Source of the DNA: Candidatus Uhrbacteria bacterium
GTDB lineage: Bacteria; Patescibacteriota; Patescibacteriia; UBA9934; GWF2-40-263
NCBI GenBank assembly: GCA_013204385.1
Contig: JABMNY010000031.1
Location: forward strand, 1,168-65,167
Length of the DNA: 64,000 nucleotides
Direction: 5' to 3'
In this document: positions 8,379-57,678 of the stretch, one piece after another
How positions within the stretch are numbered: the first letter of the stretch is position 1
Layout: each line of letters starts with the position of its first letter
Notes under the pieces: model-generated
The model's input: the letters and a program-made list of their open reading frames with translations, nothing else
What the model was told of the DNA's origin: nothing
Database searches by the model: none
Made by a program: the position numbers and the translations under genes

Positions 8379-8406
8379 TTGACATTTCTTTAAAATTGGT
8401 TATAGT
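8379..8406 (+). promoter_or_regulatory. near-consensus promoter: TTGACA - 16 nt - TATAGT, upstream of the high-GC gene at 8462
   Basis: Read directly; the SD-like aggaaga sits 6 nt before the ATG at 8462. Confidence 0.45.
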
Positions 8407-8461
8407 TCTCCGTCGGAACACGTTCCGTCATCCGTAAACGAGAACAAGATTAGGAAGAGTC

Positions 8462-9217: not shown

Positions 9218-9261
9218 CCTCCTCGAGGTCCTTGCTCTCGCTGGCATTGCTAGCGAGATTT

Positions 9262-9612
9262 TTAATTTGTTTTTTTGAAGTTCACTTTAAACACGGGATA
9301 CCAAGTTTGATCGTATTCGTCCTTAATCTCAACGGTCTCATTTTTGACATACATGTTCAATGCCATGTCTGCGAGAAGCTCCTGATCCGTTGCGATCTCA
9401 ATCTTGATTTCATCGAGATCCGACGCATCAGAATTACCTGCCCGCACGTTTTGCTCAATCCCCTTTTTCTCTTCACGCAAAGTCTGCATCTCCTCCACAA
9501 TCTCTTGATACCGGGAACTGTGCGTAAGTTCATCTTTAAGCATTTTGTTAATCTCTTTTCGGCGTTTTTTGTTCGCCTCTAACCTATGATAAATTTCTTC
9601 AAGTTTTGGCAT
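9262..9612 (-). CDS. hypothetical coiled-coil protein
   Basis: 116-aa charged K/E-rich ORF with no recognisable motif. Confidence 0.35.
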   Translation of the reverse strand: MPKLEEIYHRLEANKKRRKEINKMLKDELTHSSRYQEIVEEMQTLREEKKGIEQNVRAGNSDASDLDEIKIEIATDQELLADMALNMYVKNETVEIKDEYDQTWYPVFKVNFKKTN

Positions 9613-9632
9613 ACCCGGTAAGTCTACTTTGA

Positions 9633-9911
9633 TTACGAACGTCTGAAACGCACTAAGCGTTTGGCTAAAAACCGACGTCCAGCTGTTGATTTAAAATACT
9701 TCTCCCGTGCTCGTGCATCTCCTTCATCAAGACACGCTTCATAATACTCCAGATTAAATAGTCTTCGATATTTTGTAGAGATCACTCGACCATCTTGATG
9801 TTCCTGAAACCTTTTTTTTAAATCCCCAGTAAAACCGACATAGCGTAACCCATCCTTCTGACTTTTTAGGACGTACATATACCAAAAGGTCAAAGTAGTC
9901 TTACCGGGCAT
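9633..9911 (-). CDS. GIY-YIG nuclease-domain protein (YhbQ/UPF0213-like)
   Basis: YMYVLKSQKDGLRYVGFTGDLKKRFQEHQ ... REKYFKSTAGRRF is the GIY-YIG / URI-domain signature; start taken at MPGKTT. Confidence 0.65.
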   Translation of the reverse strand: MPGKTTLTFWYMYVLKSQKDGLRYVGFTGDLKKRFQEHQDGRVISTKYRRLFNLEYYEACLDEGDARAREKYFKSTAGRRFLAKRLVRFRRS

Positions 9912-10044
9912 AGAACAATATGATATCACAGCGAGCAGGATGGACCTGTTGACAAAATCGGGTTTTTTGCATACGATGGCGCGTCCGTCTCACAAACCAA
10001 CGGATTCTGGTCCTCTTGATCAGGAACACCCAAAGGAGTGCCTC

Positions 10045-10683
10045 ATGGCCCGTAATCTCAGTCACAGTGGGAACCGAGTAGGTTCCAAAATCGAAGTGAA
10101 GCTCACGCTCAACGGAGCCGACCTCGTCCCTGGCGAGAAGTGGAATGTGACCATCACTGGCCTCGCACTCAACGGTGGAGAGCAAGAAGTCCCTGCCGGA
10201 GCCACTGGTTCGCACGAGATGACTTGGACAAGCAGTGCACCGCTGACTGCCGGAGCCACCTCGATCCAGGTGAAGTTGTGGAAGGTGGGTCCGCCGGACA
10301 CCAACCTGGGAACCACCCAGATCGACATCCTTCCTGTGGCGAGCCCCCCAGCTCTCCCGTCGACCACCCCACCACCGGCGACGACTGCTCCCCCCGCAGG
10401 CTCCTCTGTGCCCCTGCAGGTGCAGGTGGTCGGTTCGCCCTCCAAGTTCCTCTCCTGGGCACCGATCCTCACTCTCATCGCCTCCATCATGGGAGTCTTT
10501 CTCTGTCTGGGATTCGTCTGCTACCTGCTCTGGCTGTTCGCCGGACAGGTCGCTGGGACTTCCGCAGGCGTGAGCGTCGACAAGAAGGACTCAGTCCACA
10601 TCTCGGTCGAGATGGACGTGAACAGCAACGACCCCGCAGTCCATGCTGAGGCTGTAAAAGCCGTAGGATCCATCACTCACTGA
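10045..10683 (+). CDS. high-GC Pro/Thr-rich surface protein with a C-terminal TM anchor; hypothetical
   Basis: Strong SD (aaggag) 6 nt before the ATG at 10045; the ORF track starts it at 9940. PSTTPPPATTAPP linker, TM at ILTLIASIMGVFLCLGFVCYLLWLF; GC well above backbone. Confidence 0.45.
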   Translation: MARNLSHSGNRVGSKIEVKLTLNGADLVPGEKWNVTITGLALNGGEQEVPAGATGSHEMTWTSSAPLTAGATSIQVKLWKVGPPDTNLGTTQIDILPVASPPALPSTTPPPATTAPPAGSSVPLQVQVVGSPSKFLSWAPILTLIASIMGVFLCLGFVCYLLWLFAGQVAGTSAGVSVDKKDSVHISVEMDVNSNDPAVHAEAVKAVGSITH

Positions 10684-10696
10684 ATTCACCCACGAC

Positions 10697-10766
10697 TGAC
10701 GCAAGTGATCCGATCGGATCACTTGCGTCACGCTTCTGCCTCACCTCGCAGAAGCGTTTTCATTTA
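10697..10766 (+). terminator. perfect 34-nt palindrome (10697-10730) followed by a second hairpin plus T-run (gcttctgc...gcagaagc gtttt); tandem terminators after the high-GC gene
   Basis: tgacgcaagtgatccgatcggatcacttgcgtca equals its own reverse complement. Confidence 0.55.
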
Positions 10767-10805
10767 CAGCATCTTCGGACTCCTATAAGCTACAAACTAC
10801 TTTCT

Positions 10806-11558
10806 ATGAATACCCCTGAACGCATCAACAAATACCTTTCTACCCATGGATACTGCTCCAGGCGCGAAGCAGATCGTTTGATTGAGCTTGGAAGAGTGTT
10901 TATTAATGGTGAGGAGGCACGTCTTGGAGATCAGGTTCAGCCTGATGATACCGTTCGCGTTGAGGGACGAGATAGAAAAGAGCGAAAAGAAAAAGTCTAT
11001 ATCCTCGTCAATAAGCCAAACGGCATCATCACCTCCCCTGACATCAATAAACGAAACAACATTACCTCCTTTGTCGATTACCCAGAACGGATTTATCCTG
11101 TAGGACATCTGGACCTCGAAGACTCAGGACTCGTCCTCCTGACAAACGACGAGATCTTGGCAAAGCGTCTCATTCATGAAGAGCATGCCCCCGACGAGGA
11201 ATATGTGGTCGAGCTGGATCAACCCCTTTCAAAACTAGATCTCGTCGCCATGCAAAACGGAATCGAACTTGAGCATGGCAAAACCCCAAAAACAAAAGTT
11301 CGTCTCATGAATCCAGACAGGTTTGCGATCATCATTCCAAACAACCGAGAGAATCACATTCGCGAAATGTGCGACTTCCTTGGATACGATGTTCCTTACC
11401 TTATTCGTACACGCATTGGAACGCTCAAAATCCCAACAAGCTATCCAGAAGGAAATATTCGCCACCTCACAGAAAAAGAAGTGCGAGACCTGAAAAAACT
11501 CGTCGGCCTCAAAGTCCGCCCCGCCCGACCAGAAAAAGCAAAGAAACAAAAAAGATAA
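10806..11558 (+). CDS. rRNA pseudouridine synthase (RsuA/RluB/RluF family) with an N-terminal S4 domain
   Basis: S4 motif RINKYLSTHGYCSRREADRLI; catalytic core ...VGHLDLEDSGLVLLTNDE (the conserved Asp in the HLD/RLD motif). Confidence 0.85.
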   Translation: MNTPERINKYLSTHGYCSRREADRLIELGRVFINGEEARLGDQVQPDDTVRVEGRDRKERKEKVYILVNKPNGIITSPDINKRNNITSFVDYPERIYPVGHLDLEDSGLVLLTNDEILAKRLIHEEHAPDEEYVVELDQPLSKLDLVAMQNGIELEHGKTPKTKVRLMNPDRFAIIIPNNRENHIREMCDFLGYDVPYLIRTRIGTLKIPTSYPEGNIRHLTEKEVRDLKKLVGLKVRPARPEKAKKQKR

Positions 11559-11594
11559 TCCGAATGGATTATCTTTTTTTATGCATCACATTGA

Positions 11595-12086
11595 TTGACA
11601 GGGAGGTCGTTGCGTGATATCTTCCTGCGTTCACCTTCTCGCAACCCAAAAACACCCCAGGAGCACTCAGTGGCGAAAAATTGGATTGATGCCATCTCGC
11701 ATTTCAACGACCAGACACTCGAAAAGGATGAGTGGACCCATGAAGCACATCTCGTCGTTGGGCTCTGGCATTTGCTGACGTATGAAGACGTCTACAAAGC
11801 GTTGTGCTTCCTGAAACCGAAAATCATCCTCCGTAACCACCGAGTCGGCGTAGAAAATACCGCTTCGCGCGGATATCACGAAACCATCACCCTCTTCTGG
11901 CTACAGGAGATCGATACGTTTGTCCGTTCACAGGCGGGCTCGAAGGACATCTTCACACTCATCGATGCACTCCTCCAGGAAAGAATCTTCCGGAGAAAAG
12001 ACTACATCTTTCAGTTCTACTCCAAAGATGAACTAATGAGTCCTCGTGCTCGAGCCATGTTCATCCCCCGCCCTCCCCAACTCTAG
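11595..12086 (+). CDS. hypothetical protein
   Basis: 163-aa ORF with no recognisable motif; real start possibly downstream. Confidence 0.35.
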   Translation: MTGRSLRDIFLRSPSRNPKTPQEHSVAKNWIDAISHFNDQTLEKDEWTHEAHLVVGLWHLLTYEDVYKALCFLKPKIILRNHRVGVENTASRGYHETITLFWLQEIDTFVRSQAGSKDIFTLIDALLQERIFRRKDYIFQFYSKDELMSPRARAMFIPRPPQL

Positions 12087-12141
12087 TCCTCCATCTCGCA
12101 CCCAACGCACGGGTGCTTTTATGTTTCAGGAACATGATTTT

Positions 12142-12606
12142 TTATTCTTCACTCTCAAGAACATCATGCCTTGGAACAAAATGATAGTTCCCGAATAAAA
12201 TCTCTTTGATGTCTTGCTCATGCGTTTTGTAATAGACAAACGAATGAGGTGAGACATTCAGCTTAAGGAGTTCTTCAAGCGTGAACCATCCAATCCTTTG
12301 CCCCTCATTTCCAAGACGAATTTGCGGAAATTCTTCTTCTGTTACGGGGACATAATATCGATGCACCAGACTCCCATCCGTGTACGTCGTTGTTCCAAGA
12401 TTGATCACGGAAGAAGGCGTCATACAAATTTCTTCTTGCAGTTCTCGCACTAACGCCTCTTCAGGCGATTCCCCTTCTTCAATTCCCCCACCAGGCGTAT
12501 TCCACGTATTTGGATACGCAATGGCTGGATTATCATCTCGAAGCACAAGCAGTATTTTATCTTGATACACAACAATCGCTTTTGCTCCTGGTTTTCTTAG
12601 GGTCAT
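12142..12606 (-). CDS. NUDIX hydrolase
   Basis: Nudix box GGGIEEGESPEEALVRELQEEI (Gx5Ex7REUxEExGU). Confidence 0.8.
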   Translation of the reverse strand: MTLRKPGAKAIVVYQDKILLVLRDDNPAIAYPNTWNTPGGGIEEGESPEEALVRELQEEICMTPSSVINLGTTTYTDGSLVHRYYVPVTEEEFPQIRLGNEGQRIGWFTLEELLKLNVSPHSFVYYKTHEQDIKEILFGNYHFVPRHDVLESEE

Positions 12607-12607
12607 A

Positions 12608-13201
12608 TTATTTCTGTAAGTCGCTTAGATTTTTCAATTCCTTATATCGAAAACAATCGACTGTATGGTCATTCACCATTCCGCAGGCTTGCATGTGCGC
12701 GTAGACGGTTGTGGGGCCGAGGAACTTGAACCCACGTTTTTTCAAATCTTTTGCGAACGCTGTTGACTCAGGAGTAATCGCAGGAATCTGACTCATGGAT
12801 TTCCATGCGTTCACTTTTGGTTTTCCGCCAACGAACTCCCATTGATACTGCGCGAATGAACCAAACTCTTTTTGGATTGCGAGAAATTGTTTTGCATTAT
12901 TGATCGCCGAATGAATTTTTGCACGATTTCGAATGATCCCTGCGTTCCCCAACAGCACCTCAACCTGTTTCTCTGTAAACCGTGAAACTTTTACGGCATC
13001 AAACTGTTTAAACGCTTTGCGATAATTTTCACGTTTTTTCAAAATCGTAAGCCAACTAAGCCCCGCCTGTGCACTTTCAAGAGTGAGGAACTCGAACAAC
13101 TTCCTATCATCATATAGCGGAACCCCCCATTCGGCGTCATGATACGCACTATATAATGGATCTGATTCAGACCATGTACAACGATGTTTCTGTTGAATCA
13201 T
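12608..13201 (-). CDS. tag: DNA-3-methyladenine glycosylase I
   Basis: 197 aa; the CTWSESDPLYSAYHDAEWGVP N-terminus plus an HhH and the C-terminal Cys/His zinc ligands are typical of Tag. Confidence 0.85.
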   Translation of the reverse strand: MIQQKHRCTWSESDPLYSAYHDAEWGVPLYDDRKLFEFLTLESAQAGLSWLTILKKRENYRKAFKQFDAVKVSRFTEKQVEVLLGNAGIIRNRAKIHSAINNAKQFLAIQKEFGSFAQYQWEFVGGKPKVNAWKSMSQIPAITPESTAFAKDLKKRGFKFLGPTTVYAHMQACGMVNDHTVDCFRYKELKNLSDLQK

Positions 13202-13302
13202 ATCGTTTATGCTAACACATAATGGTCACGCTCAAATAAGAGAACATTGACAACTCTCAACAAAATGAATAATCTCTTGGATCGACAACGTTCAACTGTC
13301 GA

Positions 13303-13767
13303 TTGGAGGAATCGTTGAAACTTCTTCTCATCATCTGTCTTGTTCTATTGGCAAGCGCTCTCATGAACATCCTGATGGAAAAACGCGCACGTGCGCAACA
13401 GCTCCACAAAGCTCCCACACTCCGACAATTGGCCTATTCGGCGGCACAACACGACTTCAAGAATGTCTCGATAGACGAACGCTGGCAAGATCAACCAGCC
13501 ACCTCGTTCCCAGAAGCTCCAACTGCCATGATGCAGTCCCCCTCCCTTCGGTGCTATATCTGGAAGTCGGACGACATGAAGGCGTTGACTCTGATCGCCT
13601 GGTGGACACAAAAACCACTCCCTTGGACGATCACGTTCACGGATGGACACCTGCTACTCGCTTCAGTAGGCAACGCACAAGGCCCGCGCTTCTCAAGAAG
13701 ACAACTCACAAAGGACGAGACCCGCTTCCTCGACCAACTCAGACAGAACATCTTGCGCAGGATGTAA
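13303..13767 (+). CDS. hypothetical secreted/membrane-anchored protein
   Basis: 154 aa with an N-terminal signal anchor (LLLIICLVLLASALM); moderately GC-rich. Confidence 0.35.
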   Translation: MEESLKLLLIICLVLLASALMNILMEKRARAQQLHKAPTLRQLAYSAAQHDFKNVSIDERWQDQPATSFPEAPTAMMQSPSLRCYIWKSDDMKALTLIAWWTQKPLPWTITFTDGHLLLASVGNAQGPRFSRRQLTKDETRFLDQLRQNILRRM

Positions 13768-13989
13768 GCCCACTTGCCGTATCCAATTGAAGCTACCCTT
13801 GGTCGCTTCAACTCACAGGATACGGTTTTTATTTTTTGATAGTTACTAAGGAAGAGATGTCTGAATGAAATCGAACCTCCGTAAAATGTGAAGGTTTTGT
13901 GGCGAGCGTCATAAAATAGGTAAGGACATACTGTTTAGTAACTATGAGTCAGATGGATTGACTTTTCAACATAAAATGAGTAACCTTTC

Positions 13990-14298
13990 ATGTCGACAGC
14001 CTCAGCCCTTTGTCGATTGGAGGAACTCGTGAAGATTGCCCGCATCACACTCATCCTTTTTGGTCTTATATTGGTTGTATTTGCCTTCTGGTCTGTGAAG
14101 ACTCCTGATGAGGAGACACTCAAGACTGTACCGAACGTTCAGCAGACTCCTTCCTGGACAGAGCTTCACAGGACCCCAACAGAGCCGCTCGCAAGCAGTA
14201 GCATCAACGGCGCCGTCTGGATGCCTAAAAGCTGCACTCACCCAGTCATGGAGATCATGATCAAGGACGGTACCGCTCGCATGGGGTCCAACTGTTAG
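13990..14298 (+). CDS. small high-GC membrane protein (possible)
   Basis: 102 aa with a TM (ITLILFGLILVVFAFW). A longer antisense ORF at 14002..14574 (-) has junk-like composition, so the plus strand is preferred. Confidence 0.3.
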   Translation: MSTASALCRLEELVKIARITLILFGLILVVFAFWSVKTPDEETLKTVPNVQQTPSWTELHRTPTEPLASSSINGAVWMPKSCTHPVMEIMIKDGTARMGSNC

Positions 14299-14340
14299 GA
14301 CGGTCAGGATATCCCTGAACAGTTCCGAAACGTCAAAAAC

Positions 14341-14682
14341 GTGGACACCTCTGTCGCAAGCATGGAGGACCGTGGACCATCGTTCGCCATGGTGATCGGC
14401 GAGCCTGATGTCGACAATGATGCCGTTGGAATGCCTCCGGAAAACAAGCAGAGTGTCATGGTGGAGGTGCCAATTGTGAACACCTGCACCCTCGCCGCGG
14501 TTGACGTCGATCTCAGCAACGTCAGCAAAACTACGGTCCGCTACGGCTGTCTCGACATGGGGAGCGCTCCTCACACGACAATCGATGTCAGTCTAAACAT
14601 CGTCACCGGACCGACTCTGAACAAGGATCGCAGTCCTATTGTGGCGATCACCTTCCGTCATCCTGATAAGATAAAGAACTGA
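14341..14682 (+). CDS. small high-GC hypothetical protein (possible), in tandem with the 13990 ORF
   Basis: 113 aa, co-directional and non-overlapping with the upstream ORF. Confidence 0.3.
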   Translation: MDTSVASMEDRGPSFAMVIGEPDVDNDAVGMPPENKQSVMVEVPIVNTCTLAAVDVDLSNVSKTTVRYGCLDMGSAPHTTIDVSLNIVTGPTLNKDRSPIVAITFRHPDKIKN

Positions 14683-15127
14683 CTTCTCAGCACCACGCCG
14701 CACCCACAGTTGATCGCCCTGTGCGCTTCAACACTCTCTGGTGCGGTTTTCTTTTTATTCAAAAAGTCAAAGTCGCTCATTTCCCCTTTTTTTGTTCGAA
14801 CAAAAAATCCTTACGTTTTGTAGGGATTTTTTGGCGGGATGTCGCGAAACAAGTCGGAACGTATTACATACTTGAAAAACAAAGCGAACCGATAAGTGTC
14901 GGATGATGTTGAGTCGTTCTCTTAGTGGGTCTTTTGAGAGAAATATGGCAAGTCTGTAAAACCCTAGGTGGGGGAGAAAAATGTGGGTGACTTATAATGC
15001 GTTATGAGTCTGACAAAATAAAAACGCCCACCAGAGATGAGCGGCCTGTACGGCGACTCTTGGTGGGCGGCAAGAGAGTTGATTTGGTAGACGAAGGTAA
15101 CTCTATCCGTACCCCAAAGATCTCGAT

Positions 15128-15895
15128 CTACCCACCAGTTCGAACAGAACCACGCGCAATCTCGATCATCGATGGACGAAGTGTCTCGAAAGTTCGACGA
15201 AGGTCACCTGCGTAGACATACCCGCAATAATCACCTCGTTTACCGCCGTTTGTTCCACGGACGTTCATACCGATCAGCCGAAGCTCGTCATCCCAGATTG
15301 GGCTACCTGAGAATCCTGGACGGGTATGCATGTGCATGTAGCCATGCTCGAGATACCCACGATCAAGGAGACCGGGGAGTTCGACCGTGTCAGTCTCTGG
15401 CAACATGTGTGCCATGTGAACATCGCTCAAACTGATCCAGGCACGATGAGTTGGATTCCTCGGTGGACCGATCGTCTGCTTCGCAACGAAGAGTTGTGTG
15501 TCTTCTTGATCTCCAATCGCGTTCCGACAGTTGTAGAGAATACCCCCGCCTTCTGCATGCCACTTGTCGAATGCTCGCGTATCAAAGGCCCGCAGTTTCT
15601 TCGCCTTGGTGACGCGGCGCGCGATGATGAACGCGATGTCGCGATCGTCCGGCGCATACAACGGAAGTGGATGCAGAGGAATGTACTGCTCTTCACGATT
15701 GAAGCCACCAAGAAGGATAAATTCCGAAAGATCGTTAACCTCAAGAAAGTGATGTCGACAGGTACAGATTACGACTTGTCCCAAAGGAAGAACCTCGTAA
15801 ACGAATCCCATAGCTCGAGAGAGAGCTCTGTCCTGACGCTGTCGTGTAATGGTCACCAATATGCTGTTACTGCGCAACCATTCGTTCATGTCCAC
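15128..15895 (-). CDS. stand-alone trypsin-fold (S1 family) serine peptidase
   Basis: Catalytic-triad-like motifs in order: TCRHH (His), DRDIAFI (Asp, like DIALL), GFSGSPIW (Ser, like GDSGGP). No signal peptide seen. GC-rich gene flanked by AT-rich DNA. Confidence 0.55.
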   Translation of the reverse strand: MDMNEWLRSNSILVTITRQRQDRALSRAMGFVYEVLPLGQVVICTCRHHFLEVNDLSEFILLGGFNREEQYIPLHPLPLYAPDDRDIAFIIARRVTKAKKLRAFDTRAFDKWHAEGGGILYNCRNAIGDQEDTQLFVAKQTIGPPRNPTHRAWISLSDVHMAHMLPETDTVELPGLLDRGYLEHGYMHMHTRPGFSGSPIWDDELRLIGMNVRGTNGGKRGDYCGYVYAGDLRRTFETLRPSMIEIARGSVRTGG

Positions 15896-16155
15896 AGTTG
15901 AATCAACCGAAGACCTATTCTTCTTTTTACCTAAGGAACACTCTCCTAGATAGGATTGTTGAGGACTTTTATCGCAATCAAGCGATGCTAAAGATTATAC
16001 TAAATAGTAAAAAAGTCAAGAGTTAGCTCATCTAATCGACTCATTTCTAAATCACCAACTTACAATCTATTACTGGATAGTGGATATCAACTTTCTTATC
16101 TCACAAATACTTATACCCACAACTCTTCAATGTCTCAGACAATTGAACCTTCATC

Positions 16156-16372
16156 TAGGCACGCCCCTTCCCTCCCTTTAGATATTTCTCACGACTCTTT
16201 GCCTCTTGTTCTGAAAGATACGCCTCGAAGTACATAAGTCTGAAAGGCAATCTATTTTTTGTCGCTGGAACGCTTCCAGTTTCATGTTGTGAAAATCTTT
16301 TATTACATCCTGAGAGTATCCAATATAAAGTTTTCTATCAAAAAGACTAAATAAAACGTATACGTAATACAT
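16156..16372 (-). pseudogene. frameshifted GIY-YIG (YhbQ-like) gene fragment
   Basis: Frame A gives MYYVYVLFSLFDRKLYIGYSQDVIKDFHN, the GIY-YIG N-terminus. After about HN the homologous C-terminus (KNRLPFRLMYFEAYLSEQEAKSREKYLKGGKGRA, compare SKRGPWKVIYYEAYLNQKDALGREKFLKSGSG of the 63477 copy) continues in the +2 frame to the stop at 16156. Confidence 0.6.
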
Positions 16373-16591
16373 AGATAATTAGCATAACAAAACAAGTCGC
16401 TTTCGCGACTTGTTTTGGCTACCGATATGAGCTCGGAACGAATGCTGTCGAGCTCAGCTCGACGACCTTCGCTTCTGTACTTGAGCGCGGATGATGTCGA
16501 GCATAGCGCGATCACCTTCGCTTCCATACTTCGGTTGAATCTCGGCAAAGCTGAGCTTTGCCTTCTGCACATTCAACCGAGCTCAGCTCGG

Positions 16592-16669
16592 TGGCGGACC
16601 GGAAGGGATTCGAACCCTCGATCTTCTCCGTGACAGGGAGACGTGTTAACCGGGCTACACCACCGGTCC
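16592..16669 (-). tRNA. tRNA-Asp (anticodon GTC), CCA encoded
   Basis: Manually folded: acceptor GGACCGG/CCGGTCC, D-stem GTGT/ACAC, anticodon stem TCTCC/GGAGA with loop CTGTCAC, T-arm GAGGG-TTCGAAT-CCCTT, discriminator G, CCA. Confidence 0.85.
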
Positions 16670-17164
16670 AGGTGGGAAATCATCCAAAATTGAATGCGTT
16701 CTTGTGCAGCGGGAAAACAATATCATATCGTTTAGATCCTCGCAAGACTTAAGATTATCATGCTAAAACCATTGACTTATTAATCAATCTCCTCTACGCT
16801 CATGAAGCTGTCCGGCTGTAATGGCTTTTGAGTGGTGGTATGTGGACGAGGAGTTACAGAAATTACCAGACTTTCTACCCTCCGGCTCCTTAATCGCCCA
16901 CAATGCTCTAACCAAGGGGTTTCTCATGCGCCCCCCGTTGTTCCCCAAGTATCTGGTACTTCCTCCAAGAAGTCGCTCGGGGAACATTCGCCATGACCAG
17001 GTAAAGCGAGCGCCTGTCGCGAATAGGTAATGAGGAATTGCCCTCATGCTCAGAATGGTGAACAACGTCATGTACTTCACCTCGGACTTCCCTTTCTCCC
17101 CGCATTGTCCTCCACGTGGACAGGCGGTTTTTTTATTAAAAAACTGGCTGAATAGTTCAACCAG

Positions 17165-17746
17165 TTAGAAACGTGCAATGTAGAGCACAGCATCTCCGCG
17201 CTCAAAATTGCAGATTGAGTCCCACCAAGTCTGCACCTGTCCATCTCGATTGATTGGCTGTTCACCGTAAAGGGGTCCGCCATAGAATCCCTTTTGAATC
17301 ACGTTCGTCATGCCAAGCGACACAGCGAGTTGTGCGCGAATCGACTCCGCTTGAGCGCTCTCATGACAACCCTCTGGGTTTGGAAGTACCTCGGACGCAA
17401 TCGCCCGGACCGATGACCACACGATTGGTGACTGCGTGCGCCCCGCAAACCAACTCAGGTCAGAGCGCGCGTTGAAGATCTCCTTTGTTGCCTGCGCTTT
17501 AATCCCATGCCCCTGATACGCAGGAAGCACGAGGGTTCCAGCAATGTAGAGCACGCCAGGAATCGGCAGTTTGCACAGCATGCATGCAACGAGCAGATCG
17601 TCGTCGTACACACTCAGACAGAAGTCTGTATCCTCCAAGTGGTTTTCCACATCAATCCTCAACTCAGGAGTGACCCGCTGACAAAATCCTTCTGAAGCCA
17701 GAAGGACCAATTCATCGAGAGTGGGATTCTTTTTCACATATCGCAT
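17165..17746 (-). CDS. putative GNAT-type acetyltransferase (weak)
   Basis: 193 aa; LPAYQGHGIKAQATKEI resembles GNAT motif A (Q/RxxGxG/A); no other evidence. Confidence 0.3.
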   Translation of the reverse strand: MRYVKKNPTLDELVLLASEGFCQRVTPELRIDVENHLEDTDFCLSVYDDDLLVACMLCKLPIPGVLYIAGTLVLPAYQGHGIKAQATKEIFNARSDLSWFAGRTQSPIVWSSVRAIASEVLPNPEGCHESAQAESIRAQLAVSLGMTNVIQKGFYGGPLYGEQPINRDGQVQTWWDSICNFERGDAVLYIARF

Positions 17747-17990
17747 AGATTCTCCCTGTCTAGACGTTATTGTCTAGGGAAGAGCGTGAAAGCCACCACC
17801 CAAAACAAAAACGACCCTGGAAGGCCATGGATCGTTTTTAAGAAAACAAACGTAGACCTTCCTAAGAGAGGTCGCGCCACCAAGTGGATTGAACGTTTGT
17901 ATCATTCATAGTACGTTCAGCGTATCTGGATCCCTCTCACCTGTCAATCACTTGATTCATCTACCCATATCTATGCTAAGCTTTACTCAT

Positions 17991-18407
17991 ATGAAATACA
18001 TTCTCGCTATTGTCCTTCTCCTGTTTATAGGAGTTCTCGGATACACTCTTTGGCCTCAGACTCCACCAGACGCTGTTTCTGGTACATGGGATGCGCAAAT
18101 GGAAATATTTCCATTTGAACGTGCTCCCACCACACAACTCACTCTTCATTGGAAGGCTCCGGAACAAAGCTATAATCACTTTGTTTTGAGTATCTCAGAC
18201 GAACAAGGTCAGCTCCTGAGAAAAGAGTCTGGTGAGCATGACCGTCTGAGTCTTGACCCAGATGCCCTCGAACCTAATACAACCTACCTATTTTCACTCC
18301 AGGCCTGTTTGGATCCAAACTGCACCACCTGGCTGGTTTCAAGCGAGGAAGTCAGAGGAACGACAGCTTCAACATCAGAAGAAGAAGTAGAAGCACGGCA
18401 AGAATAG
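17991..18407 (+). CDS. secreted hypothetical protein with a signal peptide
   Basis: Start taken at MKYILAIVLLLFIGVLG (track start 17889); a beta-rich domain with NxT sites, then an acidic tail. Confidence 0.4.
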   Translation: MKYILAIVLLLFIGVLGYTLWPQTPPDAVSGTWDAQMEIFPFERAPTTQLTLHWKAPEQSYNHFVLSISDEQGQLLRKESGEHDRLSLDPDALEPNTTYLFSLQACLDPNCTTWLVSSEEVRGTTASTSEEEVEARQE

Positions 18408-18425
18408 TAATTCTTGGAAAATAGT

Positions 18426-18455
18426 AAAAAAAGAGGCTCTGTGCCTCTTTTTTTA
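18426..18455. terminator. bidirectional terminator (A7-gaggctctgtgcctc-T8)
   Basis: Hairpin with flanking A and T runs, read directly. Confidence 0.6.
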
Positions 18456-18485
18456 TTGACAAATACCATCACTTTTAGGTAGTAT
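18456..18485 (+). promoter_or_regulatory. promoter-like TTGACA - 18 nt - TAGTAT, upstream of 18545
   Basis: Hexamers read directly. Confidence 0.35.
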
Positions 18486-18544
18486 CCAGCTATCTTGGCT
18501 AGAAAAAGAGGGCTGGCCAGATACTTCCTCCCACCCATACCCTC

Positions 18545-18985
18545 ATGTTGGAGCTGAACGTGCAGATTCTGTCCCCCCTCGCTGGCTTGGCCTCTGCCAC
18601 TGCCACCACCTCCTCACAGGCCTCCCCGGCCAATCTCGAACATCTCCCCCGTCTGCAGACCGCGGCTGATACGCGGTTCATCCAGGAGGACAGCCCTACC
18701 TGGAACACGACCCTTCTGGGCAGGCTCGTGGTCCTGGAGATCTACCCGATCGAATGGAACGATCCTGAAACCGAAGAACGCCTCGAGACGAACGTCGCAC
18801 AAATGCGCCACTGGCAGAAGTACGAGCTCGATGGCGTCGACATGGTCACCCTCGGTCGTGCCGCTCAGACCCTCGAGCGTAACAGCATCAACTGGCGCCA
18901 GGCCCGCGATCACGCACAGGTCCTCACCTGGGCCAACATGGTTGCTCCCGACAGCTCCACCCAGGTCAAGGAAGAAGTCCACTAG
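18545..18985 (+). CDS. high-GC hypothetical protein
   Basis: 146-aa ORF in a GC-rich islet; an antisense ORF of similar length exists, so coding-strand assignment is uncertain. Confidence 0.3.
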   Translation: MLELNVQILSPLAGLASATATTSSQASPANLEHLPRLQTAADTRFIQEDSPTWNTTLLGRLVVLEIYPIEWNDPETEERLETNVAQMRHWQKYELDGVDMVTLGRAAQTLERNSINWRQARDHAQVLTWANMVAPDSSTQVKEEVH

Positions 18986-19028
18986 TACCAGCTCTCCACA
19001 TCACAAACTTCAAACTGGTCTTGAACCA

Positions 19029-51381: not shown

Positions 51382-52188
51382 TTATGCAGCCGCAGCCGTA
51401 GGTTCTGCAGGTGCAGCAGGTTCATCCTTCTTTGCCGCATCATCAAGCTCTTCTCCAAGGAGCTTTGCGACATCATCTCCAAACTTTTCTTTAAGCACGG
51501 TTTGACGCTTTGTTTTCTTCGCAGCCGCATCAAGGCCCTTATAATACTTTTTCTCATTCGCTAAAAATTCTTTGTGCAATTTATCGACTAATTTTTTCCG
51601 CGCTTCCTTATTTGCTTTGATGTATTGATACAGAGACTTATCAAGCCCTAGAAATTTCGCAGATGAATCTAAGAGCGATACAAGTGGATTCAGGACATAT
51701 TTGAGGAGAGGAATGTTTTTATCAATCAATTTATTCCCAATCTTATCTAATCCTCGACCAAGCCAATCCATTCCGTACAAGATGCTTCTTACTCCAAATC
51801 CAACTGTCTTTGCTCCCACGTACGTAAGCGCCGCCGCTGATCCAACTGCGACACTCACACCAGTCTTTCCTTTTTCCGCTGAATAAGAACCAGCTCTTTT
51901 TGCGTAGTCCTTCAAAAAGATAAGCTTCCCTTCTGGAGCATCAGCCAGATCGACTATTGAAATCTCCGTAAGTTCTCCGGATTCTGTGCCAGAAGCTTCT
52001 GCACTCATACGTGCCTGTTCTCGCGCCGCAGCAATTGCCGCGGCATCCATAGCCGTATCTGGTGTACGCGTGGGACGGACAACATCTGGAATCTTTGGAC
52101 CTGTGTCTCTTGTTCTCGAGCCTGGTGCAGAACCTTCACGCGAAGTATCAGGTTGACGTCTTAAAGACTCACGACGGTTTGTTGCCAT
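51382..52188 (-). CDS. hypothetical protein, Lys/Ala-rich
   Basis: Start set at MATNRRESL (ATG 52188). The track's 52293 start would overlap the divergent relA start. No recognisable domain. Confidence 0.4.
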   Translation of the reverse strand: MATNRRESLRRQPDTSREGSAPGSRTRDTGPKIPDVVRPTRTPDTAMDAAAIAAAREQARMSAEASGTESGELTEISIVDLADAPEGKLIFLKDYAKRAGSYSAEKGKTGVSVAVGSAAALTYVGAKTVGFGVRSILYGMDWLGRGLDKIGNKLIDKNIPLLKYVLNPLVSLLDSSAKFLGLDKSLYQYIKANKEARKKLVDKLHKEFLANEKKYYKGLDAAAKKTKRQTVLKEKFGDDVAKLLGEELDDAAKKDEPAAPAEPTAAAA

Positions 52189-52287
52189 AGGTTGATATTT
52201 AATTGTCCTTAATATAGCACAAAAACGCAGTTTTGTCAACGGAACTCTGTCTTTACGGAAGCTTCTGCTCCATGTATCGTACAAGGT

Positions 52288-53787
52288 ATGCATGAGACGA
52301 TTCGCATCTATGACGACCTGGAACGGCTCGTCAAAAAAACATACGCAGCACCGGACTTAGAAACACTCCGGCGCGCTTTTGCGCTCGCAGATTCTGCCCA
52401 CGCGGGAGAAGTACGTCTCACAGGACATCCTGTCATCTCGCATCCCATCGCTGTTGCCTATCGTTTGGCCGAAATGGGGCTTCATCTTAATGTGATTGTT
52501 GCAGGACTTCTTCACGATGTTGTTGAGGATTCAGATGTAACTATCGAAGACTTAAAAACGCAGTTTGGGGACGATGTCGCATCTTTGGTGGAAAGCGTCA
52601 CAAAACTCAAGCACGGCATTAAATACCGAGGAACAGAACGTTACGCTGAAAACATGCGTAAGATGTTTCTTGCGATGGCAAGTGATGTCCGCGTCGTCTT
52701 CATGAAATTTGCCGACCGTCTTCATAATCTTGAGACGCTTTACGGTCAACCAAAAAACAAACAAGAACGCATTGCACGTGAGTCTCTTGAGATCTATGCA
52801 CCAATCGCGGGACGACTCGGGATGAGTGAGTTTAAGGGAGAACTTGAAGACGGATCGTTTGCCTACCTCCAACCAAAGGAATACGAGCGGATGAAAAATA
52901 TCATGGACATTAAGGTTCGTGAGAAAGGAGCGTACGTGAGTCGTATTATCGATCAAGTAGAAAAACTTCTTGGCTCTACAAGCGTCACAGATTTTCAAGT
53001 TCATGGACGCATCAAGCGTCTCTTTAGCCTCTCTAAGAAGTTAAAGAAGTACCAGGGAGATTTAAGTAAGATTTATGACCTTATCGCTATTCGGATTATT
53101 GTGAGTGATGTCGAAGAGTGCTACATGGCGCTGGGACTCCTCCATCAAAAGTGGCGACCGGTACCGGGACGCATTAAGGACTACATTGCCCAACCAAAGC
53201 CAAATGGCTATCAATCCCTTCACACAACCGTTTTTACAGAAAATGGAGAGATCATCGAGTTTCAAATTCGAACCCTCGAGATGCATGAACTTGCTGAATA
53301 CGGAGTCGCCGCTCACTGGCGCTATAAAGAGGGTTCACGCAAGGCAGTAAAGAATACCCGCTGGATGGAAGAGCTTGCGCAAATTCAGAAAGAACTCCAA
53401 ACAAAAAAAGACTTCATGGAGCAGTTAGAAGTCATGAAGATCGATGTTTTTCGAGATCGTATATTCGTCTTTACTCCTCAAGGAGACGTGATAGATCTTC
53501 CAGAAGGCGCCACTCCGATTGATTTTGCCTACGCCATCCACACAGAAGTAGGAAACAAGTGTACGGCGTCGCGCATTAATGAAGTCATGCGAAACCTTGA
53601 TACCCCTCTAAAGTCAGGAGACATTGTGGAAGTCATTACAGACAAGAACCGTCGTGGTCCAAATCCAGACTGGCTCAAATTCGCTAAAACGCGCCACGCC
53701 CGAACAAAAATTAAAGACTCAACAAAAAGCACGGTCAAAGGCTGGTTCGCAGAAGTACTCAAAGGACGCGAGCGAGCAAAGAAATAG
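52288..53787 (+). CDS. short bifunctional (p)ppGpp synthetase/hydrolase (RelA/SpoT homolog; HD + synthetase + TGS, no ACT/RRM region)
   Basis: HD motif (HPIAVA...LLHDVVED), synthetase motif (DLIAIRIIV...YQSLHTTV), TGS (VFTPQGDVIDLPEGATPIDFAYAIHTEVG); ends about 230 aa earlier than long Rel proteins. Confidence 0.85.
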   Translation: MHETIRIYDDLERLVKKTYAAPDLETLRRAFALADSAHAGEVRLTGHPVISHPIAVAYRLAEMGLHLNVIVAGLLHDVVEDSDVTIEDLKTQFGDDVASLVESVTKLKHGIKYRGTERYAENMRKMFLAMASDVRVVFMKFADRLHNLETLYGQPKNKQERIARESLEIYAPIAGRLGMSEFKGELEDGSFAYLQPKEYERMKNIMDIKVREKGAYVSRIIDQVEKLLGSTSVTDFQVHGRIKRLFSLSKKLKKYQGDLSKIYDLIAIRIIVSDVEECYMALGLLHQKWRPVPGRIKDYIAQPKPNGYQSLHTTVFTENGEIIEFQIRTLEMHELAEYGVAAHWRYKEGSRKAVKNTRWMEELAQIQKELQTKKDFMEQLEVMKIDVFRDRIFVFTPQGDVIDLPEGATPIDFAYAIHTEVGNKCTASRINEVMRNLDTPLKSGDIVEVITDKNRRGPNPDWLKFAKTRHARTKIKDSTKSTVKGWFAEVLKGRERAKK

Positions 53788-53852
53788 TGTATATTTGTCT
53801 ACACCCCCGAAAAAAGATATATTATATTTGTTATTACTAAGTATTACTCATT

Positions 53853-54089
53853 ATGGCGAGACAAACAAAAATACTTTCTATTTCTCTTCCTGTTGGACTC
53901 ACAAAAGCCATGGATATTCTTTCAAAACAGACCGAGCAAACACGGAGTGAACTCGTTCGAAGCGCATTGCACGAATACATCATGGATACAGCAGAGGATC
54001 GGGAAAGATTTTTAGAAGCGTACAAAACCACTCGAGAAGAAAAGACTATCTCTATGGAAGCATTAAGAAAGAAATACGATCTTGTTTAA
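53853..54089 (+). CDS. ribbon-helix-helix antitoxin (type II TA)
   Basis: 78 aa; the N-terminal beta-strand then two helices is RHH-like; 8-nt overlap with the downstream toxin; direct repeat tattact-N4-attact just upstream (53832-53849). Confidence 0.6.
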   Translation: MARQTKILSISLPVGLTKAMDILSKQTEQTRSELVRSALHEYIMDTAEDRERFLEAYKTTREEKTISMEALRKKYDLV

Positions 54090-54363
54090 TATGTACAAGA
54101 TCGTTTTTACTTCTCGCTTTGAACGAACGTTTAAAAAGCTCGACAAAAAAACACAACGCCTACTTCTTGAGGCAATTGAACAGCTCGCTCAAGATCCTTT
54201 TAACCAGCCTCATATCAGAAAAATCATTGGAATTAAACAAAACGGTTTCCGTTTACGAGTTGGACGTTGGAGAATTCTGTATATTCTCTTGACCAAAGAG
54301 GAGGTCTTAGAGGTTATCGATTTATTCATGCGAAAAGAACAAGGAGATTATCGACGAATGTAG
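54082..54363 (+). CDS. RelE/ParE-family toxin (type II TA)
   Basis: 93 aa; KIVFTSRFERTFKKLDKKTQRLL...GFRLRVGRWRILYIL..EVLEVIDLFMRKE matches the RelE/ParE fold pattern. Confidence 0.7.
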   Translation: MFNMYKIVFTSRFERTFKKLDKKTQRLLLEAIEQLAQDPFNQPHIRKIIGIKQNGFRLRVGRWRILYILLTKEEVLEVIDLFMRKEQGDYRRM

Positions 54364-54409
54364 AATTTTGTGAAAGTTTGAGTTTAGGCGAAGTGGACGA
54401 TTCATTTTT

Positions 54410-54462
54410 AAAAAAACACCCCACCGACAGCAAGCCACCGGAAGGGTGAATCTTGCTGAGGG
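54410..54462 (-). terminator. compound hairpin terminator of the high-GC cassette (T-run on the minus strand)
   Basis: cagcaag...cttgctg with inner cacc/ggtg; A7 on the plus strand immediately 5'. Confidence 0.45.
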
Positions 54463-54467
54463 CGGGG

Positions 54468-54704
54468 TCAGTTACGTCTCGTGTCTTCGTATTCGAGAGT
54501 GATGAAGGCCTTGTAGAGCATCAGACCGAAGGGAACTACGATGCTAATCATGCTCAACAGGCCAATGAACCAGTCGGGCGAACCCTTCTCGTACCAGTCA
54601 AGGCCGAAGATCAGCAGACCCAGGACGCCCATCGACCAGATGACGAGACATGCAAGTGCGTCCCCTTGACCGAATACGTGTGGTTCTGGTAGTTGGAGTT
54701 TCAT
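54468..54704 (-). CDS. small two-TM membrane protein (high-GC cassette, gene 3)
   Basis: 78 aa; ATGA overlap with the upstream gene. Confidence 0.5.
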   Translation of the reverse strand: MKLQLPEPHVFGQGDALACLVIWSMGVLGLLIFGLDWYEKGSPDWFIGLLSMISIVVPFGLMLYKAFITLEYEDTRRN

Positions 54705-55030
54705 GGAGTGCTCCTATCAGTTGGGAAAGGTGTAGGTTTCGATCGCATCTTCCTGCCCAGCCAGCTACCGACCATACTGGCGCTCACTATGATCGTTCCT
54801 GGAATGGCGAGGAATAGAGCGAACATCTGTGGCATGGTGTGAACCTCCAGCTTCATCATCAAAAGGCAGGTGCCTCCACCAAGACTGCACACCGAGATAA
54901 TGCTGATGATGTTCATCATCCCTCGCTGTAGGGCAGTAGTGTCAGACCAGCGATTGCCGTAAAGCCAGCAACAATACACCAGGAGCAGTAGGGTACCCAC
55001 AGTTAAGAGGAGAGCGATGTAAAGAGTCAT
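54701..55030 (-). CDS. three-TM membrane protein (high-GC cassette, gene 2)
   Basis: 109 aa, hydrophobic. Confidence 0.5.
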   Translation of the reverse strand: MTLYIALLLTVGTLLLLVYCCWLYGNRWSDTTALQRGMMNIISIISVCSLGGGTCLLMMKLEVHTMPQMFALFLAIPGTIIVSASMVGSWLGRKMRSKPTPFPTDRSTP

Positions 55031-55041
55031 GGTTTTCTCCG

Positions 55042-55647
55042 TTAAACGAAGCGGTCAGTGGGGGGGTTGGTGGGTAGAGTGGTCGAAGATACATCGTCGA
55101 TGGTCTGTGGTGTTTCCTTTTTGAAGGTCTTTGAGGCACTTAAGACCTCGAGGACCACATGGACACCAGTCACTCCGGGGAGGCCCTTCTTGGCCAGCGA
55201 AGCTCCGAGAGCCTCAAGGTAGCGCTGGTAGGCGTAGACCTGCTGACGTCGAAGATTGCGCGTCCCGGGGTAGATCGAGAACCAATAGCGTGGTGCGCTG
55301 TTGGGCATCCCGTTCTGTGGGATCGGATCGCCGTGGATGTAGAAGATGCTGTCCGCGTTGGCATCCGGGTGCAGGTGGTCATCGACCCAGGGTTGCTGTG
55401 CATCGACCTCGAGGATTGCTACCCGAAGGAAGTCGATGTCCTCGATGCCGTATGCGTGGAAGACGACTTGACCACGAATGGTGTAGGGACGATCCTTCGA
55501 CCATTGAAGCATCGACAGGAGCGCCTCGCCCCATCTTTCTATGAGGGTACTCATCGAGATACCTCTTTCTTTGAAGCTTCGCCAACGGGGCGATGACCGG
55601 TCACATACCTTTGCAGTAACGGGAAAGAGTACCTTTTTTTCAATCAT
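55042..55647 (-). CDS. hypothetical soluble protein (high-GC cassette, gene 1)
   Basis: 201 aa with no recognised motif; strong SD (ggaggagg) before the ATG at 55647; an alternative start is the ATG at 55554. Confidence 0.5.
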   Translation of the reverse strand: MIEKKVLFPVTAKVCDRSSPRWRSFKERGISMSTLIERWGEALLSMLQWSKDRPYTIRGQVVFHAYGIEDIDFLRVAILEVDAQQPWVDDHLHPDANADSIFYIHGDPIPQNGMPNSAPRYWFSIYPGTRNLRRQQVYAYQRYLEALGASLAKKGLPGVTGVHVVLEVLSASKTFKKETPQTIDDVSSTTLPTNPPTDRFV

Positions 55648-55687
55648 TTGTCAATCGTTCCTCCTCCAAAATTAAACACACACAATC

Positions 55688-55718
55688 AAAAACACTCCTG
55701 TTTTGCGGGGGTGTTTTG
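55688..55718 (-). terminator. parB terminator
   Basis: Hairpin acactcc...ggggtgt then a T-run on the minus strand. Confidence 0.4.
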
Positions 55719-55728
55719 TATGACTGTT

Positions 55729-56595: not shown

Positions 56596-57369
56596 CTAAA
56601 GTCGACCTTCTTCACGTAACATAAATTCTCGAGCAAGACGTTCGTAGGCTTTCGCTGCTTTTGACGTAGGATCATACCCGAGAATCGTCTTCCCAAATGA
56701 CGGAGCCTCAGCGAGGCGAATCGAACGAGGAATGACACTGCGAAAAATCTTATCTGGAAAATAACGATACAACTCTTCTAATACCTCTTTTGAGAGTCGT
56801 GTACGACCGTCGTACATCGTAATGACAGCCCCCATGACATCAAGGCTGGGCTTAATGTTCTCTCGCACAAGATTTACGGTATTCAGAAGCTGTGTAAGCC
56901 CTTCAAGCGCGTAATACTCTGCTTGCACGGGGATAAGAACGGAATCTGCTGCCACAAGCCCATTGAGCGTCAGCATTCCGAGTGAAGGAGGATTGTCGAT
57001 GAAAATATAGTCGTAATCATTTCGAACTTCTAAAAGTGCCTTACGCAGAAAGTGCTCGCGCTCGTCCGCATTCACAAGTTCTACACTCGCTCCTGCCAAT
57101 GCTTGCGTTGCAGGGAGAATACTGAGCCCTTGATGCGCTGTCGCGTGAATGAGATTGCGCACAGAATGCGATCCGATAAGGCCTTCATACACACCTGCTG
57201 GGAGATTTTTATGATCTATCCCTACTCCTGAGGTGGCATTCGCCTGAGGATCTAAATCAACTAAAAGCACGAACTTTCCTGCATCAGCCAAATACGCAGC
57301 CAAATTTAACGTGGTGGTTGTCTTCCCCACCCCTCCCTTTTGATTCACGACCGAAATTATATGTGCCAT
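56596..57369 (-). CDS. parA: chromosome partitioning ATPase ParA (Soj)
   Basis: MAHIISVVNQKGGVGKTTTT deviant Walker A; the track ORF is over-extended to 57597, and the ATG at 57369 gives a 258-aa ParA. Confidence 0.9.
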   Translation of the reverse strand: MAHIISVVNQKGGVGKTTTTLNLAAYLADAGKFVLLVDLDPQANATSGVGIDHKNLPAGVYEGLIGSHSVRNLIHATAHQGLSILPATQALAGASVELVNADEREHFLRKALLEVRNDYDYIFIDNPPSLGMLTLNGLVAADSVLIPVQAEYYALEGLTQLLNTVNLVRENIKPSLDVMGAVITMYDGRTRLSKEVLEELYRYFPDKIFRSVIPRSIRLAEAPSFGKTILGYDPTSKAAKAYERLAREFMLREEGRL

Positions 57370-57447
57370 AACAGTAGCGCAATTATACCTAAATTTGGGT
57401 TCAAGCGAAAGTTGACGTATGATGAATCTATAAACGTAAACAATCAT

Positions 57448-57678
57448 ATGCCAAAACAGGAAAATGATTTTCTCAATATGCTTCGTGACGCCGTCGGTGG
57501 AGCGGTTGCAGGACTGATCACAGGACTCGTCTTGGGGATCGCGATCCAGTTCATCAGTTATATCGTGCTTCCAATAGAGTTTCGTGATGGACCTCAAGTC
57601 ATTGCTCCATTCCTAGGAATGGGATTCGGAACCCTCGTAGGAGCTATTTTAGGAGGAATGGTGAGTTTAAAGAAATAG
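57448..57678 (+). CDS. small two-TM glycine-zipper membrane protein
   Basis: MPKQENDFLNMLRDAVGGAVAGLITGLVLGIAIQF...GMGFGTLVGAILGG. Confidence 0.4.
   Translation: MPKQENDFLNMLRDAVGGAVAGLITGLVLGIAIQFISYIVLPIEFRDGPQVIAPFLGMGFGTLVGAILGGMVSLKK

Follow-up and report, generated by a model that had tools for sequence, protein, structure and literature searches.

In a 64,000-nucleotide (nt) stretch of a Candidatus Uhrbacteria genome (assembly GCA_013204385.1, contig JABMNY010000031.1; hereafter the window), we analyzed a compact operon of three open reading frames (ORFs) on the minus strand, which lies between a toxin-antitoxin (TA) pair and the partition genes parB and parA. Horizontal acquisition of this operon is strongly supported by the absence of its genes at the same locus in relatives, by its foreign base composition, and by the occurrence of homologues of its first gene in unrelated contexts. 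Gene 1 belongs to an undescribed and rare protein family with a conserved hairpin at its translation start, and genes 2 and 3 encode orphan membrane proteins specific to this lineage. The operon contained the following features:

55042..55554, minus strand: gene 1 (ORF170; NCBI HQ487_03910, identical product NQV90523.1), a soluble protein of 170 amino acids (aa)
54701..55030, minus strand: gene 2 (ORF109), a small membrane protein with three predicted transmembrane segments
54468..54704, minus strand: gene 3 (ORF78; NCBI HQ487_03905), a small membrane protein with two predicted transmembrane segments
55555..55667, minus strand: the non-coding 5' leader of gene 1, assigned from sequence
55546..55563, minus strand: the translation-initiation hairpin GGUAUCUC-GAU-GAGUACC, holding the last Shine-Dalgarno (SD) bases and the AUG
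54410..54468, minus strand: the intrinsic operon terminator, in which a long GC-rich hairpin (54418-54468) precedes a run of seven T (54410-54416)

A preliminary description of this region, made from the sequence alone, had reported three minus-strand genes encoding a soluble protein and two small membrane proteins with three and two transmembrane segments. The ORFs identified here (55554..55042, or from 55647 in an extended form, 55030..54701, and 54704..54468) agree with it, with zero, three, and two hydrophobic segments in gene 1, ORF109, and ORF78, respectively. The reported position between a TA module and parB/parA was also found, with ribbon-helix-helix (RHH) and ParE matches in Pfam on one flank. 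Translational coupling had been claimed for all three genes; ORF109 and ORF78 overlap by ATGA, and gene 1 and ORF109 do not overlap, with 11 nt between the gene 1 stop and the ORF109 ATG. GGAG stands 6 nt upstream of the ATG of both ORF109 and ORF78. As for the terminators ascribed to the operon, the one at 54410-54468 is strong (the fold of 54360-54480 on the minus strand reached -35.9 kcal/mol, about -30 or better), but the upstream one (55688-55717) belongs to parB. Plus-strand ORFs of 137 and 145 aa were also present across the operon region.

Gene 1 had been read as a 201-aa protein behind a strong SD sequence. The homologues in the family, more than 60 in number, nearly all begin with MRT..., aligned to Met32 of that reading, gene 1 begins with MST... 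at 55554, NCBI calls the same 170-aa form, and the conserved start motif of the family is found at 55546-55563 in the window. Therefore, the start of gene 1 was placed at 55554, and its length was revised to 170 aa. The 31 upstream codons are an open stretch across the leader without an in-frame stop, and a few homologues have the same artefactual extension, reading K-E-G-(I/F)-S, which is the translated SD region. The supposed SD sequence, GGAGGAGG (55660-55667), lies ahead of an unused in-frame ATG (55647) and upstream of a possible -35 element, TTGACA (55649-55654), and is not a ribosome-binding site in use. A weak candidate -10 element, TACTCT (55626-55631), was read by eye along with this -35 element, and a small hairpin, CGCC-CCGUU-GGCG, was found in the leader at 55580-55592.

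Using ParB, 80 related loci were fetched (these and the other fetched loci are numbered with the prefix L below). In the closest relatives (ParB 66-84% identical, ParA about 90%, and RelA 72-90%), the gene order was parA-parB followed by the convergent relA-orf303-topA, and in more than 25 relatives (e.g., L011, L013, L015, L018, L020, L024, and L025) the parB and relA stops were spaced by about 20-60 nt. The corresponding spacer in the window measures 1,941 nt, and the comparison added the following features:

53788..55728: the filling of the convergent parB/relA spacer, from synteny comparison, which holds the TA pair and the operon
53853..54363, plus strand: an RHH antitoxin (53853-54089) and a ParE/RelE-family toxin (54091-54363), from Pfam, convergent with the operon
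55688..55717, minus strand: the parB terminator ACACCCC...GGAGUGU with a T run, at the upstream edge of the inserted DNA

The RHH antitoxin lies directly upstream of the toxin with 1 nt between the genes, and both matched Pfam above the cut-off (RHH_1, E 1.8e-5; ParE_toxin, E 6.4e-9), as in a type II TA pair; the same pair was also among the gene calls of contig L101. Neither the TA module nor any operon gene was found within 6 kb of the parB locus in any relative, and no further paralogue of gene 1 was identified in the window, which has one copy, or at the parB loci of relatives.

The preliminary description had also reported a GC content far above the backbone, and the comparison of GC at third codon positions (GC3) bore this out. 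The operon ORFs have GC of 0.52-0.57 and GC3 of 0.61-0.69 (ORF109, 0.61; ORF78, 0.56/0.35/0.66 by codon position), against a window GC3 median of 0.40 and values of 0.33-0.46 for parB, parA, relA, topA, and the TA genes. However, about ten other window ORFs, mostly at 8.4-19 kb, also have high GC3 (0.53-0.78), and GC-rich orphan cargo is a genome-wide trait in this Uhrbacteria genome. These ORFs without obvious function lie within 8400-19000, just 3' of the tmRNA gene (5562-5982), and include 18545-18985 (GC3 0.78), 9940-10683 (GC3 0.68), 8462-9217, and 13303-13767; they alternate with low-GC housekeeping genes (smpB, infC, rplT, and genes for a pseudouridine synthase and a NUDIX protein, and tag). 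The TA pair deviates from the 0.45 backbone in the opposite direction (GC 0.37-0.39), and the two modules therefore look like separate acquisitions rather than a functional unit.

Other cargo was found at the same spacer in relatives: a 226-aa polytopic, CAAX-like membrane protein (L012), a methyltransferase (L014), a helix-turn-helix protein (L019), and a complete diversity-generating retroelement (L022 and L023). The retroelement (L022:1763-4487 and L023:2106-4960) encodes a reverse transcriptase (330-334 aa) and an Avd-like protein (114-123 aa) and includes a target gene in which a template/variable segment is repeated. This spacer resembles the convergent-gene hotspots that carry accessory or defence islands, in that one spacer holds differing cargo among relatives, and differs from them in that neither an integrase nor a tRNA target nor direct repeats could be found at the insertion, only terminator-like inverted arms. 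The arms are a 14-nt inverted repeat on either side of the entire insert (ACACCCCCGAAAAA, 53801-53814; TTTTGCGGGGGTGT, 55701-55714; 13/14 complementary); a related 10-mer (10/10; 54413-54422) flanks the operon alone. Terminator-like ACACCCC sequence characterizes the arms (53801-53814 and 55701-55717), and GGGGTGTTTT occurs in three copies in the window, against 0.11 expected. The inverted arms could be the halves of an ancestral relA terminator that was split, or could be microhomology on which the insertion relied. A split terminator as the general insertion mechanism was rejected, since the relatives with other cargo have an intact parB terminator and no such arms.

Two observations concern the genes around the spacer. 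orf303 (51382-52293, minus strand), between topA and relA, is syntenic in relatives and is only 30-38% identical, against 70-92% for its neighbours; it is fast-evolving and has no Pfam assignment. On the other side, the 333-aa ParA ORF (56596-57597) is over-extended, and the true start is probably near Met77 (about 57369), because it resembles ParA-type ATPases only from about residue 78 onward.

An exhaustive HMMER search identified 69 cluster representatives of the gene 1 family at E<1e-3, nearly all of 140-160 aa; a word-indexed homologue search returned only the query itself for ORF170 and ORF109. The family clusters are tiny, and the two named hosts are both Patescibacteria, one of them a member of the Giovannonibacteria (L008). 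The earlier statement that no protein shows a recognizable motif stands, as none of the three window proteins matched Pfam, NCBIfam, PHROGs (threshold E 0.01), or PADLOC. Profile scans of the family covered 63 members. No Pfam family was matched by more than one of them at E<=0.1, with the dimeric alpha/beta-barrel (Dabb, or stress-responsive A/B barrel) family absent, no consistent match to NCBIfam, PHROGs, or PADLOC was found, and the family profile gave only chance-level matches against PDB sequences. Gene 1 ends in about 25 aa that are not typical of the family, and the isoelectric point of the family is near neutral. As the sole hint of a domain fusion in the family, the C-terminal extension of one member (P0051, 259 aa; residues about 138-205) aligned with the RNA polymerase alpha C-terminal domain (7l7b_A, residues 240-307) at E 0.97, which is not significant.

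Structure prediction gave a ferredoxin-like model of gene 1. The AlphaFold2 model built with the family alignment (predicted local distance difference test, pLDDT, 86) was used, and a single-sequence model (pLDDT 42) was dropped. In this model, an N-terminal helix precedes a beta-alpha-(35-residue insert)-beta-beta-alpha-beta core, with strands (E) and helices (H) at E24-34, H41-53, E72-76, E89-95, H103-123, and E128-139. The best Foldseek matches in PDB were the Dabb-type 8s4e, Populus SP1 (1si9), Passiflora hydroxynitrile lyase (5xzq), and At3g17210 (1q4r), at E 8e-4 to 1e-2, with a probability of about 1.0 and target-normalised template-modelling (TM) scores of 0.47-0.59 for the Dabb matches; further proteins of ferredoxin-like fold ranked lower, among them PII-like proteins, ribosomal S6, and S-adenosylmethionine (SAM) lyases. 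The predicted structure shows gene 1 to be of the ferredoxin-like fold class, nearest to Dabb, which assigns it to a class and not to a family. Gene 1 shares with Dabb (PF07876) proteins the beta-alpha-beta-beta-alpha-beta ferredoxin-like sandwich and a similar core size, and differs in having no sequence similarity to them and in adding the N-terminal helix and the insert of about 35 residues, which carries the conserved FPWxD motif. Conserved polar residues were R22, Y24, D51, P55-W56, D58, S69, R102, Q105, Y109 (invariant), E110, and Y112, with Q105, Y109, and Y112 on one helix; no conserved His was found anywhere in the family alignment.

The ratio of nonsynonymous to synonymous substitution rates (dN/dS) within the family was 0.09-0.24 where dS was unsaturated. 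A population variant contig differed from the window by 10 single-nucleotide polymorphisms (SNPs), all in codons 16-55 of gene 1, and seven of the 10 were synonymous. On these sequence comparisons, gene 1 is evidently a coding sequence under purifying selection. In the variant (contigs L101 and L102), the 10 SNPs fall within 118 nt (55390-55507) and none in the other 1,158 aligned nt, and two independent assemblies end at the edges of this segment, which suggests strain-level recombination or co-existing alleles. Targeting by a diversity-generating retroelement was rejected as the cause of the cluster, since the changes are mostly synonymous and not adenine-specific.

At the start of the family genes, 24 nt were nearly invariant (AGGAGG-U-Y-U-CUC-GAU-GAG-R-ACC-UU), against saturated synonymous sites elsewhere in the same genes. 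These nucleotides form a predicted hairpin of 7-9 base pairs (bp) with a bulged U, in which the SD sequence pairs with codons 3-4 and the AUG lies in the loop and stem. All seven pairs were kept, and the single variable pair occurred as U-A (4), U-G (4), C-G (2), and A-U (1, the window). RNAalifold independently predicted the same helix with a 9-bp consensus, and individual folds agreed. G-U pairs were tolerated on the sense strand only, which points to RNA rather than DNA. The free energy of the hairpin was about -7 to -10 kcal/mol at 37 °C (roughly -8) and about -13 kcal/mol at 15 °C. The window has a single copy of its 18-nt core, where 0 are expected, and in the fetched loci the core was confined to family starts. 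No Rfam family reached its gathering score in the window; the matches that the window region and L004 gave at E<=1 were at chance level. These alignments show the hairpin to be conserved at the nucleotide level, with one covarying pair. In the leaders of homologues, a near-consensus TATAAT is followed by a 5' stem-loop of variable sequence and then by the SD hairpin.

Hairpins that bury the ribosome-binding site are found in IS200 tnpA, the IS10 transposase gene, the I-TevI and seg genes of phage T4, and type I toxin mRNAs. The gene 1 hairpin is like these and like the RNA thermometers ROSE and fourU in that a short helix pairs the SD sequence and the start codon, and the gene 1 family also has in common with such genes a self-contained, laterally mobile unit with a 5' stem-loop. 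It differs from them in its family-specific sequence (AGGAGGUYUCUCGAUGAGRACCUU), which has no Rfam match.

Gene 1 homologues were solitary in 11 further distinct loci, with changing neighbours. They were found after rplJ-rplL (L001), after yceG (L004), after rplM-rpsI (L008, the Giovannonibacteria locus), before dnaX (L009 and L092), near a CYTH gene (L010), beside a gene encoding a major facilitator superfamily transporter (L095), divergent from rpsF-ssb (L098), beside pth (L100), and after genes for a coupling-protein-like ATPase and a Replic_Relax protein (L099). In L096, the homologue shares an island with genes for a Shedu-like SduA_C protein, a methyltransferase, and a large serine recombinase. 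Because these contexts are unrelated, the homologues are not syntenic housekeeping genes. Among the 12 family loci, no partner recurred save a PaaX_M/Cas2-like gene in two of them, whose surroundings otherwise differ (L004:6723-7289 and L008:6557-7225); this gene adjoins the family gene and encodes proteins of 188-222 aa with 37% identity. No small membrane ORF was found downstream of homologues in the loci for which downstream ORFs were listed, and the operon is therefore not a conserved three-component system. The family gene was richer in GC than its surroundings in 11 of the 12 loci, by 0.04-0.18. Searches of phage, plasmid, and viral-contig data with the protein and the start motif found no family member, and tblastn against 50,697 phage records found no match for the window proteins. 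The picture that emerges is of a rare, laterally moving, self-contained one-gene unit.

Genes 2 and 3 are orphans. In the homologue search, made with ORF109 only, ORF109 matched nothing but itself among 5.8 billion clusters, the ORF109 and ORF78 clusters hold just the copies of this organism (that of ORF78 is a singleton), and neither matched phage records by tblastn. GC by codon position and GC3, the ribosome-binding sites, the coupling, and the transmembrane pattern argue that ORF109 and ORF78 are real genes that probably arrived with gene 1. A phage lysis cassette or holin pair was rejected, since the window proteins and the gene 1 family had no match among PHROGs, phage records, or viral contigs.

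Taken together, the best explanation, to which we assign a probability of about 60%, is an acquired operon of about 1.25 kb that is one of two independent modules in the parB/relA spacer and that carries a member of the gene 1 family with its start-site hairpin. The parB/relA spacer would be prone to recombination, and two independent modules would have filled it. Elsewhere, the gene 1 unit consists of its own promoter, a 5' stem-loop, the SD/AUG hairpin, the ORF, and a terminator. The mRNA would be made, and ribosome loading would be limited by the SD/AUG hairpin, which we infer to repress translation; opening of the hairpin would then allow translation of gene 1, giving a product that is low-level or condition-dependent, and genes 2 and 3 would be translated via their own GGAG sites and the ATGA overlap. 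Regarding function, we tentatively suggest a dosage-sensitive, Dabb-like accessory factor with a small-ligand-binding or enzymatic role in stress or genetic conflict, a proposal that is possible but doubtful; in this genome, gene 1 may act at the membrane through its two small partners.

Several points weigh against parts of this explanation. Since six of the seven hairpin pairs are invariant, the covariation comes from one pair, and the shuffle control was moderate, with 23 of 500 shuffles matching the observed score. The window copy of the hairpin is slightly degenerate, and its minimum-energy fold favours an alternative structure; the promoter scan did not report the leader promoter read by eye, and the window promoter is weak or uncertain. 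Normalised to the query, the fold matches are weak (TM-scores 0.3-0.4; Dabb 0.37), ferredoxin-like folds are ubiquitous, and no annotated homologue informs on function. ORF109 and ORF78 are without homologues and their reality is judged from indirect signals; PGAP annotates ORF78 and skips ORF109, which JGI calls as 109 or 72 aa. Finally, the restriction of the family to Patescibacteria is inferred from the two named hosts and gene content only.

The acquired, foreign character of the operon, which the preliminary description had proposed, agrees with its absence in relatives, its composition, and the unrelated contexts of its homologues. The opposite idea is that the ORFs are housekeeping genes native to this genome, or artefacts that lie antisense to a gene on the plus strand. 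High-GC DNA gives long spurious ORFs on both strands, and the plus-strand ORFs of 137 and 145 aa would fit an artefact; however, the genes are absent at this locus in all relatives, the family dN/dS values apply to the minus-strand frame, the SNPs that are synonymous in this frame (7/10) fall at first codon positions of the antisense ORF, and the ribosome-binding site and start motif are conserved. The SNP pattern and dN/dS exclude an antisense artefact for gene 1, and this idea as a whole is extremely improbable. The preliminary description had further suggested, as speculation, a module for defence, abortive infection, or toxin-immunity. In an anti-phage or toxin-immunity module of this kind, a soluble sensor or toxin would work with membrane effectors or immunity proteins. 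Acquired cargo at a variable site adjoining a TA pair, the homologue in the L096 island with its Shedu-like, methyltransferase, and serine recombinase genes, and tight translational gating, which suits a toxic product, are in keeping with it. Such a module is nevertheless unlikely, as neither the 63 family members nor the three window proteins matched PADLOC-DB 2.0 (the sole PADLOC match, of the ParE toxin to GajB, was at chance level, E 0.011), the homologues are solitary and never accompanied by membrane partners, most of their contexts are plain housekeeping neighbourhoods, and the TA pair differs from the operon in composition. We also consider it improbable that gene 1 encodes a Dabb-type stress protein whose SD/AUG hairpin acts as an RNA thermometer or similar stress gate. 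The top fold matches include the stress-responsive SP1 and At3g17210, and the hairpin has a bulge, G-U pairs, and a strongly temperature-dependent stability, but Pfam Dabb was not matched by the 63 members scanned, no Rfam thermometer was matched, and the rarity, mobility, and GC deviation of the family would be unexpected for a stress protein.

The mobility of the family raises the question of a selfish, self-moving gene, such as a divergent IS200-like Y1 transposase or a free-standing homing-endonuclease-like gene. Gene 1 homologues are like IS200/IS605 TnpA in their size of about 150 aa, ferredoxin-like core, single-gene organization, and a helix with Tyr and Gln (invariant Tyr109 with Gln105 and Tyr112), and a hairpin burying the ribosome-binding site is shared with IS200 tnpA and phage T4 homing genes; they sit among conserved housekeeping genes with deviant GC, and terminator-like inverted arms flank the insert in the window. 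They differ from TnpA in having no His-hydrophobic-His (HUH) motif, no Y1_Tnp match, no multiple copies, and no conserved ends. In addition, no conserved metal ligands were found in the strands, none of the 63 members matched a nuclease family in Pfam, and no transposase was among the best 50 PDB fold matches listed; there is one copy in the window, the clusters are tiny, and the flanks differ between loci save for the start motif. Identity as an HUH transposase was rejected on the missing motif, the lack of a profile match, and the single copy, and a selfish gene of either kind is very unlikely. Less probable still is a SAM-lyase-like anti-restriction enzyme carried on mobile elements. Phage SAM lyases (T3 SAMase, 7ock; Svi3-3; SAM-AMP lyase, 9gad) are likewise small, ferredoxin-like proteins of mobile elements; Foldseek aligned gene 1 weakly with SAM and SAM-AMP lyases over 135-142 columns, the size is similar, and one homologue adjoins conjugation-type genes. 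However, the TM-scores were 0.30-0.37, the family has no phage association, and the few residues conserved among SAM lyases, Gly56, Tyr58, Glu69, and Gln104 (PMC7877911), have no evident counterpart in it. SAM-lyase identity was ruled out at the profile level, as hhalign of the family alignment against the T3 SAM lyase gave a probability of 0.3%.

A bolder proposal, which is also unlikely, is that the ORF170 family represents a new class of conflict gene in Patescibacteria, one that moves laterally and is latched at translation. The protein could serve as an enzyme against host defences or as a toxin that causes abortive infection by itself, with R22, Y24, D51, W56, D58, Q105, and Y109 forming a novel active site. 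The SD/AUG hairpin would then be a cis-regulatory RNA operator of a new type, through which the protein controls its own synthesis or temperature or infection is sensed, and the membrane ORFs would have been added in this lineage as effectors or immunity proteins.

Patescibacteria have tiny genomes in which an unusually large share of genes has no assigned function, and next to nothing is known of the ways in which accessory genes are exchanged and controlled in these bacteria. An acquired orphan operon, a ferredoxin-like protein, and gating by SD sequestration are kinds already known; the family with its start-site hairpin and the hotspot go beyond the preliminary description. The acquired operon described here adds a parB/relA cargo hotspot open to comparison among many Uhrbacteria, a clearly selected and so far undescribed protein family that moves among genomes as a one-gene unit, and a start-site RNA hairpin conserved far past the needs of the protein sequence. 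Current ideas stand in either case: if the gene 1 family has a role in conflict with phages or plasmids, it would be among the first such factors specific to this radiation; otherwise, gene 1 is part of an ordinary acquired orphan operon.

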